A DNA stretch of 64,000 nucleotides, taken from sequence record NC_054925.1. The stretch is one strand, 5' to 3'. Origin of the DNA: Escherichia phage vB_EcoM_NBG2. The notes beneath the pieces are model-generated. The model was not told the origin of the DNA and searched no databases. It saw nothing but the letters and a program-made list of their open reading frames with translations. Below, one piece after another: positions 4,615-62,293 of this stretch. Each line of letters opens with the position of its first letter. Within the stretch, counting starts at the first letter, position 1. The translations under genes and the position numbers were made by a program.

Positions 4615-4982
4615 TTAAATTTAATGGCTTGAAGAAGACTAATAACTCTCAAGCGACTTCTTTCATCTTTAACTGTAAAAGAAAGAGGGTCACCAGACTT
4701 CATAGTAATAGTGCATTCAAAATCAAAATCTTCGGAAACTTCTTTGAAGAAGTCAAATTCTTCATCATAAATTAAAACTTCACTCCGAAGACTGTGAAGA
4801 ATTTTTCCGTCATTTCCAGATGCTGTACTAATCATTGTAACATTATTACCTTTCATATCTTCAACGATAAATTCGCTTGTAGATATTACAGCATTAATAG
4901 AACCATTCCTATAAATAGCAGAAAATAGATATTTCTTTTCTTCACCTTCGCGAATGCGATATTTCTTACCGATTTTAAACAT
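4611..4982 (-). CDS. hypothetical protein
   Basis: 123 aa ORF, 4-nt overlap with downstream gene. Confidence 0.5.
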   Translation of the reverse strand: MFKIGKKYRIREGEEKKYLFSAIYRNGSINAVISTSEFIVEDMKGNNVTMISTASGNDGKILHSLRSEVLIYDEEFDFFKEVSEDFDFECTITMKSGDPLSFTVKDERSRLRVISLLQAIKFK

Positions 4983-14994: not shown

Positions 14995-15025
14995 AATAAA
15001 CTCCTTTATTGTTTAATTACAGGTG

Positions 15026-15033
15026 TATTTATA
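15026..15033 (-). promoter_or_regulatory. late promoter TATAAATA for soc
   Basis: exact TATAAATA on minus strand about 30 nt upstream of soc start. Confidence 0.55.
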
Positions 15034-15207
15034 TCAATCTTCAATGAAAACTTGTGCCAGGAATTCATGCTCATCTTGAATTTGTTTATATAAAGCCATT
15101 ACAGCATTTATGTTAGAGCTATCTACTTTAAGTTGATAAGCATACCACTCATGTAAATTAATTAAAGCTTTTTGACGTCTAATAAATTCTTCTTTGGATA
15201 TTTTCAT
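15034..15207 (-). CDS. small hypothetical ORF (57 aa)
   Basis: hand-translated; ATGA overlap with upstream stop. Confidence 0.35.
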   Translation of the reverse strand: MKISKEEFIRRQKALINLHEWYAYQLKVDSSNINAVMALYKQIQDEHEFLAQVFIED

Positions 15208-15413
15208 TTTGAATGCTCTATAATTAATTTTAAGGCTTCTTCACTGACAAAAATTTCGTCAGGACCTTTTTCTACAACCCAATCAACCCAATCAACCATA
15301 CGAAGCTGATTAGAAAAGAGCTCACATACGAGCTCCTTGTCATAATCTTTAAATAGCTGGTCAATACGCTTCTTGCGGGCTTTCTTGAGCTGGCGTTTAT
15401 TTAAACGAGCCAT
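15204..15413 (-). CDS. hypothetical protein
   Basis: 69 aa basic ORF. Confidence 0.45.
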   Translation of the reverse strand: MARLNKRQLKKARKKRIDQLFKDYDKELVCELFSNQLRMVDWVDWVVEKGPDEIFVSEEALKLIIEHSK

Positions 15414-15931
15414 TAATATCCTCTGTCTTGACGAGCGAAGTTTTCAGCATTTTTCAGATAATAAAGTTTAAAGATTTCCTCAGCTGACATTCCAAGAGCA
15501 ATGAATTTATTCATGAAAAAGTGAAATTGATCAATCAGTTCAAATTTAATTTCAAGCTGATCTTCGGGAGATAAATCTTGAATTTTCTTGGATTGCATTT
15601 CAGAATAACGTTTCTTCCAAGGTTTCCATACGGCAGAAGCTTCTTTTTCACCATTACTCATACCACCAAGAGAAGTATATAGCTCGCGAGTTTCATCTGC
15701 GATATAATCGTCTTGGTTTCGCAACCAAGCAAGAACTTCTCCTGCAGTTTCAAGTGAATCAGGATGACGATTTGTTTCTGGTTTATCATTAGCCAAACGA
15801 ATCTGTAAAGACCGCTGCATATCAAGCATAACCTGCAATGGGTCAATATTGTGCATAATATTCTCAGCATATGCACGAGTTGCTTTATCAACACCTTCGA
15901 TCAAATGAGCACATTCATTAAAGTGAGCCAT
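15413..15931 (-). CDS. 56: dCTP pyrophosphatase (gene 56, MazG-like)
   Basis: Track ORF trimmed to M32 (AAGGA SD), giving 172 aa, close to T4 gp56 size. Confidence 0.75.
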   Translation of the reverse strand: MAHFNECAHLIEGVDKATRAYAENIMHNIDPLQVMLDMQRSLQIRLANDKPETNRHPDSLETAGEVLAWLRNQDDYIADETRELYTSLGGMSNGEKEASAVWKPWKKRYSEMQSKKIQDLSPEDQLEIKFELIDQFHFFMNKFIALGMSAEEIFKLYYLKNAENFARQDRGY

Positions 15932-15961
15932 TATTTTTCCTTTCAATTCATGGATTAATAG

Positions 15962-15990
15962 ATTAATTATACAATAAATATATAAAGCAA
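15962..15990 (-). promoter_or_regulatory. MotA-dependent middle promoter candidate for gene 56
   Basis: TTGCTTTAT box and TATAAT-like -10 on minus strand. Confidence 0.35.
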
Positions 15991-16002
15991 TAAGGAGGAC
16001 AT

Positions 16003-16203
16003 ATGGTACAAAAATTAATGGCACTTGTTAATGCCATAAAAGGTAATAAGAAACGTATAGCTTTTACTATTTCTGCTATGATAGGAATTTTACTTTGGAA
16101 TTTTGTTCTATCACCTGTTGCAATTGCACATGGTATTAATATTCCAGTAGTTACTCTTGATACATTCGTAGATTTAGCATTTGCTTTAGTTGGGTTAATT
16201 TAA
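16003..16203 (+). CDS. small hydrophobic protein (two predicted TM segments), plus strand
   Basis: 66 aa; strong AAGGAGG SD 7 nt upstream of ATG; stop overlaps primase stop (TTAA); only credible plus-strand ORF in the window. Confidence 0.35.
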   Translation: MVQKLMALVNAIKGNKKRIAFTISAMIGILLWNFVLSPVAIAHGINIPVVTLDTFVDLAFALVGLI

Positions 16204-17228
16204 ATCTTGGCATATTTAGATAACCGCATTTTAGCCATCAACCCCTGGGCAATATTATTTTTCATATATTCCATAATTTGTTCAGGGGTTGCACCTTCCT
16301 TTCTAATCATATCATTAACATCTTTTGATTTCCAGGGAGATTTATCCCAAAACATAACCCTTTCTCCTGCATCAACTAATTTAGTCATTCGCTTAATAGT
16401 GTCAGGATGACGAGGTTCATTATCTAAAACCCACACACGTCTATCTTTAAATGGAACAACTTCTAGGTCTAATTGACCACCTGTAATAGCTATACCATTT
16501 TCAATAAAAAGTGAATCTATAGGTCCTTCTAGAACATATACATCACCATCTTTAACTCGTTCGACTCCATAGATTTTTGTTGCCTCAGGATAAGCTTTGA
16601 TGGTGATATATTTTTGAGGAGCATCTTTCTTTAATGCACGTCCTTGAAAAGACTCAGCTTTTCCATTAGCATTATAAATTGGAATAACAAGACGAGGCTC
16701 AGGTATTTCCTTTTTATATGTTCCTGGTGCTATACTATTAACTAATTTAGGCCATTCAGTTGTAAACCAAAGATATTTCCATTTATCCTTTGGAATACAA
16801 CGAGCTTTTACGTATTTTATAATTGGATGGTCTTCCGCCAATTTATCTAGTCTAATGCATGACGGAAGAGATTTAATTATTTTCTTCTCAGGTTGTTTAG
16901 GAAGTTCTTTAGGTTTTTCTACTGGACGACTTTTACCTTTTTCTTTTCTTATTTCAAAGATATACTCACGATATAAATCAGGTTCAAACTCCTTTAAATA
17001 TATTCCGATTGGTGCATGATAGTTACAGTTATAACAATGAATATTTCCTTCATTATTATCACCATAATACCATCCACGAGCTTTATTCTGGTCGGTTTTT
17101 GAATCTCCACAAACAGGGCATCTAAACCGCAATTTAAAAGTTGAACTATTATTTACTTGTGTGAATTTAGGTAAATGAGCTAATGCACGATACGCAAACT
17201 CATTATCAATCCAAGGTATTGATGACAT
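16200..17228 (-). CDS. 61: DNA primase (gene 61)
   Basis: 342 aa; zinc-ribbon CPVCGD...CYNC then TOPRIM-like core; size as T4 gp61. Confidence 0.85.
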   Translation of the reverse strand: MSSIPWIDNEFAYRALAHLPKFTQVNNSSTFKLRFRCPVCGDSKTDQNKARGWYYGDNNEGNIHCYNCNYHAPIGIYLKEFEPDLYREYIFEIRKEKGKSRPVEKPKELPKQPEKKIIKSLPSCIRLDKLAEDHPIIKYVKARCIPKDKWKYLWFTTEWPKLVNSIAPGTYKKEIPEPRLVIPIYNANGKAESFQGRALKKDAPQKYITIKAYPEATKIYGVERVKDGDVYVLEGPIDSLFIENGIAITGGQLDLEVVPFKDRRVWVLDNEPRHPDTIKRMTKLVDAGERVMFWDKSPWKSKDVNDMIRKEGATPEQIMEYMKNNIAQGLMAKMRLSKYAKI

Positions 17229-17230
17229 TT

Positions 17231-17395
17231 TTACTCTTCTTTTTCTTTAGATTCCTCTTTTTTCTTTTTAGGAATCTGCTCAGGACCTTTATTTACTACA
17301 GAGCCTGACGTTGTTCCAGTAGAGATATTTTCAGGATTACCACCTGAATCTCCAGCGACCATATCTTCTTTGATAAATTCTTTATATGTTTTCAT
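17231..17395 (-). CDS. small protein with capsid-targeting-sequence-like N-terminus
   Basis: 54 aa hand-translated ORF; starts MKTYKEFIKE, similar to the MKTYQEFI start of the internal-protein ORF at 60763-61236; coupled to flanking genes. Confidence 0.4.
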   Translation of the reverse strand: MKTYKEFIKEDMVAGDSGGNPENISTGTTSGSVVNKGPEQIPKKKKEESKEKEE

Positions 17396-17396
17396 A

Positions 17397-17753
17397 TTAA
17401 CCTCTATTCATAAAAGCATTAAAAATTTGGTCATCAATAGATGGTGCAGTAATATTTTCTGCATCATTTAGCAAATCATTAATTTCATCAGATAGCATAA
17501 CACATGTACCTTTATTTCCTGTAATTGTTACTGCGCAATTACGAACGTTTTCTTTATTAAATTTTAGGTTAATATTTTCGTAATGAAAATCCTTTAATGC
17601 TGAATATATTTTTAAAATAAAATTGTCTTTTACTACAATAAACCCAACCTCACTATTAAAACGTGGTTCATGGAAACTGTAATAAACCTTTTCATCTATA
17701 AAATCGTATGAAATTTTTTCCATTTTTAAATATGAAAATTCAGAACTATACAT
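17397..17753 (-). CDS. hypothetical protein
   Basis: 118 aa ORF. Confidence 0.5.
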   Translation of the reverse strand: MYSSEFSYLKMEKISYDFIDEKVYYSFHEPRFNSEVGFIVVKDNFILKIYSALKDFHYENINLKFNKENVRNCAVTITGNKGTCVMLSDEINDLLNDAENITAPSIDDQIFNAFMNRG

Positions 17754-59375: not shown

Positions 59376-59737
59376 TACAAACTCTCGGTGAAGGTACGAG
59401 CGATAACGTCGCGCTGCTGTTCCGGAGTCAGAGAGTTAAAGCGAACTGCATAACCGGATACACGGATGGTCAGCTGCGGATATTTTTCCGGATGCTTAAC
59501 TGCATCTTCCAGAGTTTCACGACGCAGAACGTTAACGTTCAGGTGTTGACCACCTTCAATTTTAACTGTAGGCTGTTGCTCAATTTCAATTTCACGGGCA
59601 TGCAAACCATAGAAAATTTCTGGGTCTACAAAAGAGTCCTCTTTAAAGGTTTTAGAGACAATAATTCGTGCTTGAATACCATCTTCAAAATAAATAGTAC
59701 CTTTATGTGTGCCTTCAAGAATTTGATATGCTTTCAT
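59375..59737 (-). CDS. autonomous glycyl-radical cofactor (GrcA/YfiD-like)
   Basis: 120 aa; C-terminal [28 protein letters not shown] glycyl-radical motif; coding DNA visibly more GC-rich than neighbours. Confidence 0.7.

Positions 59738-61324: not shown

Positions 61325-62293
<969 letters not shown>

Follow-up and report, generated by a model that had tools for sequence, protein, structure and literature searches.

A conserved plus-strand gene convergent with the T-even primase gene encodes a predicted two-helix membrane protein of likely holin ancestry

The interval between gene 56 and the DNA primase gene (gene 61) of Escherichia phage vB_EcoM_NBG2 holds an already annotated hypothetical gene, the equivalent of dam.1, in a common dam-less T-even layout. 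The new and testable element is the relationship of the dam.1 family to holins: judged from profile comparisons, its 66-amino-acid (aa) product is likely homologous to PF11351-type holins.

Results

Gene arrangement at the 56-61 interval

The analysed stretch of 64,000 nucleotides (hereafter the window) contains genes 56 and 61 on the minus strand, separated by 268 bp, and a plus-strand ORF that converges on the primase gene (Table 1). A first-pass annotation had put the gap at about 270 bp and had described a 66-aa ORF with two hydrophobic segments, an AAGGAGG element and a TTAA stop overlap, all of which we found in the sequence. The overlap comprises 4 nt, with the TAA of the ORF at 16201-16203 (+) and the primase stop at 16200-16202 (-). 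On the Kyte-Doolittle scale the two hydrophobic peaks cover residues 19-42 and 49-66.

From 15400 to 17300 the window matches Escherichia phage VEc20 (Tequatrovirus) at 100% identity, and the rest is 93-98% identical to VEc20, in blocks; the first 25 kb reach at best about 97% identity to any deposited phage record compared. Such block-wise identity is typical of T-even mosaicism, and the window reads as that of a mosaic Tequatrovirus. The VEc20 counterpart of the ORF, vec20_032, was deposited as a hypothetical protein and is the sole plus-strand CDS among the approximately 126 VEc20 genes that span the window in the deposited annotation, in agreement with the earlier view that this is the window's only credible plus-strand ORF. 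A second indel relative to T4 lies in the same neighbourhood: the interval between soc and gene 56 (window 15034-15413, minus strand) is occupied by small ORFs, one of 57 and one of 69 aa, as it is in VEc20, and T4 has the homing endonuclease gene segF there.

Table 1. Positions of genes and predicted signals around the 56-61 interval of the window
Feature	Position	Strand	Basis or remark
Gene 56 (dCTPase/dUTPase) CDS	15413-15931	-	ORF listing and VEc20 vec20_031 (dCTP pyrophosphatase)
Predicted MotA-dependent middle promoter of gene 56	15966-15990	-	Read from sequence
Predicted gp55-type late promoter box AATAAATA	15973-15980	+	A(-13) variant of TATAAATA
Shine-Dalgarno element AAGGAGG	15992-15998	+	4 nt upstream of the ATG of the 66-aa ORF
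66-aa ORF (dam.1 equivalent)	16003-16203	+	Basic N-terminal helix, then two hydrophobic helices
Terminator-like hairpin with T-run	16018-16037	-	Primase strand, inside ORF codons 6-12
Gene 61 (DNA primase) CDS	16200-17228	-	Convergent with the 66-aa ORF; ORF listing and VEc20 annotation

The dam gene and the oriA region

In the T4 annotation, genes 56 and 61 are separated by dam (780 bp), and oriA is located 22 nt within gene 56. The 5' end of gene 56 in the window corresponds to the annotated T4 oriA position, and from sequence similarity oriA function may be retained. The first-pass annotation had likewise assigned dam and the oriA region of T4 to this interval, and had proposed a search for dam beyond this locus. 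By tblastn, T4 Dam found no homolog either in the window, where the best match had E = 0.3, or in the whole genome of VEc20, the closest full genome (best E = 1, with a T4-locus control at E = 2e-177). The first-pass annotation implied that the short interval was unusual, and that view has to be given up: in T6, RB14, RB18, slur07, DalCa and many other phages the whole 56-ORF-61 stretch aligns unbroken at 97-98% identity, the very finding that had been named beforehand as speaking against it. T4-type dam DNA occurs in about 184 records, compared with about 500 records that carry the ORF at an amino-acid identity of 90% or more, and the dam-less short interval is therefore the majority state in Tequatrovirus. 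Comparison thus places the 56-61 interval as an ordinary dam-less T-even arrangement; the window has either lost dam or never had it, and has kept a predicted oriA-type middle promoter.

Additional variation was seen in vB_EcoM_112, PE37, PhiZZ30 and ESh17, in which the T4 dam-61 gap (L002 3627-3935) aligns as two pieces over approximately 850 bp; in some Tequatrovirus genomes, therefore, an extra hypothetical gene separates dam from dam.1.

The predicted middle promoter of gene 56 consists of a MotA box, TTGCTTTA (the reverse complement of 15983-15990), an 11-nt spacer and a -10 element, TATAAT (the reverse complement of 15966-15971); it precedes the ATG of gene 56 by 35-59 nt. Its geometry is the same as that of T4 P(M)16.53, for which the mot-box and -10 element are annotated in the record of Macdonald and Mosig (X01416), and the sequences match. 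RB69 and VR26 have MotA-like boxes as well, and JD18 has one that matches less well. According to the T4 annotation, the transcript from the P(M)16.53-type promoter is the oriA primer.

Evidence that the ORF is a gene

The ORF matched the phrog_2024 HMM over its full length (E = 3.3e-31, ORF residues 2-66 aligned with positions 1-65 of the 65-position profile). This is a family without assigned function, and all database entries of dam.1 read 'hypothetical protein'. By tblastn, homologs are present in about 700 phage records (E ≤ 0.01), and the annotations of hundreds of Tequatrovirus genomes include the ORF, that of T6 among them; it is called dam.1 in T4T (HM137666), RB32ORF030w in RB14 and RB32, and RB69ORF029w in RB69. 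In T4 the dam-61 gap of 310 bp is empty in the annotations NC_000866, AF158101 and MT984581, yet holds a 66-aa ORF.

The gene order 56(-)/ORF(+)/61(-) is kept in Tequatrovirus, Mosigvirus (RB69), Gaprivervirus (VR26), Kanagawavirus (Q7622) and Jiaodavirus (JD18) and also in several metagenomic T4-like contigs. Some T4-like loci have extra genes between gene 56 and the ORF, and there too the ORF abuts the 3' end of the primase gene. The 4-nt stop overlap recurs in T4, RB69 and three further loci (L023, L026 and L031), and a GGAGG-like Shine-Dalgarno element is found in orthologs as well. The first-pass annotation had called the antisense placement unusual; T4 and other T-even phages share the convergent ORF, which makes the placement a conserved T-even feature. 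In VR26 (L004) tandem paralogs of the ORF (2495-2692 and 2701-2901) lie between gene 56 and the primase gene, one being of the dam.1 subtype and the other of the subtype that Kanagawavirus and T4-like phages of Klebsiella carry.

Frame and motifs are kept across the genera of T4-like phages, with ORF lengths of 57-70 aa. Across 31 diverse family members W32, N33, P38 and G44 are invariant, although overall identity falls to about 20-25%. Among six Tequatrovirus alleles, pN/pS was 0.16 in the ORF's own frame, the lowest value of the six frames. Synonymous divergence of the ORF (0.127) was similar to that of the primase gene (0.107) and therefore gives no sign of an extra nucleotide-level constraint that would suggest an RNA element. 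An Rfam scan of 15000-17500 returned nothing but a chance miRNA match (E = 0.66). A HMMER scan of 1.84 billion representatives retrieved only 19 clusters at E ≤ 0.001, which form a coherent family, and the ORF family is therefore small. Taken together, the comparative data indicate that the 66-aa ORF is almost certainly a real protein-coding gene, and the family match, the pN/pS value and the hydropathy peaks bear out the earlier description of it as a credible membrane-protein gene. A literature search covering RB32ORF030w/dam.1, T4 Ribo-seq, antisense transcription, late promoters and start sites found no expression or phenotype data.

A predicted late promoter on the plus strand

The predicted late box, at 15973, begins 30 nt upstream of the ORF's ATG, with a predicted transcript start near 15986, and sits on the opposite strand, between the MotA box and the -10 element of the middle promoter of gene 56. 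It matches the T4 late promoter TATAAATA. In all ten T4-like orthologous loci an ATAAATA heptamer starts 19-29 nt upstream of the ATG; the base at -13 varies among the ten (A, G, C or T), and the variant in T4 itself, GATAAATA, is one of the rarer ones. A very short leader would result from the box closest to the ATG in JD18 and L024. No ATAAATA box lies upstream of the ORF homologs in non-T4 contexts. Of 50 listed T4 late promoters, 9 have A(-13), and -13 is the least conserved position (PMC2988020); the T at -13 is "poorly conserved" in T4 relatives (PMC1524935). The published prediction of RB69 late promoters lists no site at the ORF (PMC1524935 supplement).

ATAAATA is five-fold depleted in the window, with 8 copies on both strands against 41 ± 6.7 expected from dinucleotide-preserving shuffles. 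Each of the four minus-strand copies precedes an ATG by 33-39 nt, namely that of soc, of lysozyme e, of endonuclease VII (gene 49) or of the ORF just ahead of rI, and the spacing at the 66-aa ORF matches theirs. The genes soc and 49 are late-transcribed in T4. Lysozyme e is late-transcribed as well (PMC3014915). Three further late-like boxes on the plus strand, TATAAATA at 4910-4917, AATAAATA at 59689-59696 and CATAAATA at 62241-62248, are antisense to early genes, and no ORF of at least 30 aa starts within about 80 nt downstream of them; because the heptamer is so depleted, they may be late antisense promoters.

The strand of the ORF points in the same direction. All early and middle transcripts of T4 have the polarity opposite to that of the ORF, and late transcripts may have either polarity (PMC2988020), a rule that the convergent plus-strand ORF fits; as only late T4 transcripts use its strand, a plus-strand gene here should be late. 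A search of the plus strand around 15930-16003 for a sigma-70 promoter that could serve the ORF was negative. The ORF is thus probably transcribed late, from a predicted gp55-dependent promoter.

Hairpins near the convergent stops

The terminator-like hairpin on the primase strand has a predicted stability of about -9 kcal/mol and is identical in T4 but not conserved in other genera. We rejected it as a primase terminator, because the one site found compares with 1.0 expected by chance and it is absent outside Tequatrovirus; it is probably not significant. On the plus strand no terminator-like site follows the ORF within 15300-17400. A different arrangement was observed in JD18 (L006 2663-2679) and L024 (4205-4211 region), where the stops do not overlap and a GC-rich hairpin lies between the convergent genes. 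The JD18 hairpin, AGGGGCttcgGCCCCT, looks like a bidirectional terminator and has no equivalent in Tequatrovirus.

Protein architecture and relationship to holins

An AlphaFold model of the ORF product, built from a 31-sequence alignment, contains helices at residues 2-12, 16-42 and 52-63 (mean pLDDT 78). Basic residues are concentrated toward the N-terminus (K4, K13, K16, K17 and R18), and D53 and D57 lie in the C-terminal segment; by the positive-inside rule, the basic N-terminal region is therefore predicted to be cytoplasmic. With high confidence, the product of dam.1 is predicted to be an inner-membrane protein with two membrane helices. A Foldseek search of the model against BFVD retrieved only family members, the hairpin being too small for an informative fold search. 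The ORF itself had no match in Pfam (even at E ≤ 10), NCBIfam or PADLOC.

Divergent members of the family, by contrast with the ORF, repeatedly gave matches, all of them sub-threshold, to PF11351 (GTA_holin_3TM) in the same region and likewise to phrog_3427 (holin). The PF11351 scores of these relatives, 13.6-17.3 bits, are below the gathering cut-off of 24.8 bits. We compared alignments with a holin profile of 72 PF11351-type holins, taken from 80 IMG/VR loci and the holins of ParKuw1 (a Paracoccus phage) and CRP-810 (a Roseobacter phage). The latter two pass the Pfam cut-off (E ~1e-20) and adjoin endolysins. With hhalign, the broad family alignment matched this profile over 53 columns with a probability of 94% (P = 1.5e-7), and the T4-like members alone matched it with a probability of 84.5% (P = 7e-6). 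Control comparisons with the reversed holin profile gave P = 0.4-0.6, and 150 column shuffles scored 11 ± 2.2 (maximum 19.4), against 34.9 and 42.7 for the real alignments.

The matched region consists of the two hydrophobic helices of the ORF and their loop, aligned with the last two membrane segments of PF11351 holins, and both groups share the pattern (W/S)N(F/Y)xx(I/V)PxA ... (I/V/L)Pxhx(L/I)(D/E) ... G(L). The N-terminal parts show no significant similarity (P = 0.03 over one column), and homology is therefore claimed for the C-terminal core alone; for the same reason we rejected the idea that the ORF is a holin with its central region deleted. We regard the hairpin, with good confidence, as a putative truncated relative of the last two PF11351 membrane segments. 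PF11351 is named for the holin of the Rhodobacter capsulatus gene-transfer agent, in which the endolysin-holin locus rcc00555-rcc00556 is needed for lysis and particle release (PMC5026251).

A dual-start (holin/antiholin) motif at Met1/Met6 was also considered and rejected, because Met6 is specific to Tequatrovirus and has no Shine-Dalgarno element.

Genomic contexts of relatives outside T4-like phages

Relatives in non-T4 contexts have varied neighbours. The gene for P0127 (82 aa) is the first in a same-strand cluster of four genes that ends with a T4-type lysozyme gene, and is located two genes upstream of the lysozyme. The genes for P0124, P0126 and P0144 come after those for tail-tip proteins and endonuclease VII on siphovirus-like contigs, with no endolysin nearby. 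Searches of the phage collection with P0127 and P0144 (tblastn) found no match.

The gene for P0132, an enterobacterial member of 97 aa, immediately precedes a RelA/SpoT-like gene with a match to the PADLOC defence candidate PDC-S33; P0132 itself has no match in PADLOC. The pair of 97-aa member and RelA/SpoT-like gene was seen on a Raoultella terrigena chromosome (L028 6001-7368), where it is flanked by transposase genes, on a phage-like contig (L029 2125-2860), where its neighbours are a SegE-type endonuclease and a lysozyme, and in L022. The pair possibly forms a mobile module of two genes in which the membrane partner is holin-like.

Discussion

What the dam.1 product might do

The account that we favour, though tentative and somewhat doubtful when the functional guess is included, is that dam.1 encodes a late, holin-like accessory protein of the inner membrane. 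We infer that the late promoter would drive dam.1 only after DNA replication; the product would then insert into the inner membrane and might self-associate like a small class-II-type holin. As an accessory it might alter membrane permeability or the timing of lysis beside holin T, without replacing it. The holin t is annotated elsewhere in the VEc20 genome. T4 t mutants fail to lyse, so the ORF product is insufficient for lysis and could be an accessory at most. Taken by itself, a lysis-related role of the dam.1 product is a possibility to which we give a little over one chance in three, and it is still less likely that T-even phages, T4 included, encode in Dam.1 an overlooked late protein of holin ancestry that takes part in lysis control. 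Were it so, Dam.1 might, for instance, be a depolariser, a modulator of timing or a partner of the T/RI/RIII system.

About equally plausible as a lysis accessory is a late membrane protein with another role, as an anchor, sensor or exclusion factor, for instance in superinfection exclusion, interaction with a host envelope protein, or defence and counter-defence. Such a role would suit the relatives P0124, P0126 and P0144, which sit outside lysis cassettes, and the 97-aa member upstream of the PDC-S33-like gene, as well as the T4-like copies, which never adjoin an endolysin and whose product is missing the charged C-terminal tail typical of holins. Yet every relative that has a named function is a holin beside an endolysin, and neither the ORF nor P0132 matched anything in PADLOC. 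Exclusion in particular fits poorly with the T4 exclusion genes imm and sp, which are early and on the other strand from the ORF.

It is also conceivable, but improbable, that the product that matters is the RNA, or transcription itself. A late plus-strand transcript might extend antisense into the 3' end of the primase mRNA, with transcription also crossing the middle promoter of gene 56, and might in this way shut down these early genes, the peptide being secondary. The position of the late box inside the spacer of that promoter would suit such a model, and, given that no plus-strand terminator-like site follows the ORF in Tequatrovirus, read-through antisense to gene 61 is expected; T4 is indeed transcribed from both strands at several sites, at different times (PMC2988020). 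Selection, however, acts at the level of amino acids, with invariant motifs in otherwise divergent sequences, whereas synonymous sites are as free as those of the primase gene and a strong Shine-Dalgarno element is kept. Moreover, the GC-rich hairpin between the stops in JD18 and L024 would end the transcript ahead of the primase gene, and some homologs have no convergent primase gene at all. Least probable of all is a chance ORF in AT-rich intergenic DNA that annotation pipelines have spread. The short length of the ORF, its absence from the T4 reference annotations and a literature that yielded no experimental data on it would fit such an origin, but a frame, length and motifs conserved across genera, purifying selection specific to the annotated frame and the coherent family recovered by HMMER effectively refute it.

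Significance

As a genome feature the 56-ORF-61 arrangement is ordinary, and the value of describing it is modest and practical. Although dam.1 is conserved in at least five genera and subject to purifying selection, it is missing from the reference records of T4 (NC_000866, AF158101), and screens that rest on the T4 reference annotation miss dam.1. The remote link to PF11351, together with the conserved late box, provides a concrete hypothesis for a family without assigned function. If Dam.1 does act in lysis control, the T4 lysis pathway has an uncharacterised component that is absent from the reference annotation.

Comparison with known systems

PF11351 holins, at about 125-150 aa, combine three hydrophobic segments with a domain at the N-terminus and a basic tail at the C-terminus. 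The ORF product is half as long, has neither the N-terminal domain nor a basic or charged tail, and ends at its last hydrophobic segment. These holins belong mostly to alphaproteobacterial phages and gene-transfer agents, whereas the ORF belongs to enterobacterial T4-like myoviruses, in which it adjoins gene 56 and the primase gene and not an endolysin, unlike the holins of ParKuw1 and CRP-810.

Class II holins or pinholins such as S21 of phage 21 have about 65-70 aa and two transmembrane helices and are expressed late. In size, number of helices and predicted late expression the ORF product resembles S21-type holins, the likeness being one of description, and it differs from them in having no conserved dual-start motif, charged C-terminal tail or adjacent endolysin. 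The T4 lysis proteins, T (holin) and RI and RIII (antiholins), are envelope-associated, and T consists of a single transmembrane helix with a large domain in the periplasm. They come from the same phages but are unrelated to the ORF product in sequence and architecture.

The counterparts in T4 and RB69 are much closer. RB69ORF029w is 55% identical to the window ORF and has the same position, length and motifs. The T4 copy of dam.1 is 94% identical, encodes 66 aa on the plus strand and shows the TTAA stop overlap too; its upstream neighbour in T4 and T4T is dam, whereas that of the window ORF is gene 56, and otherwise there is no essential difference between them.
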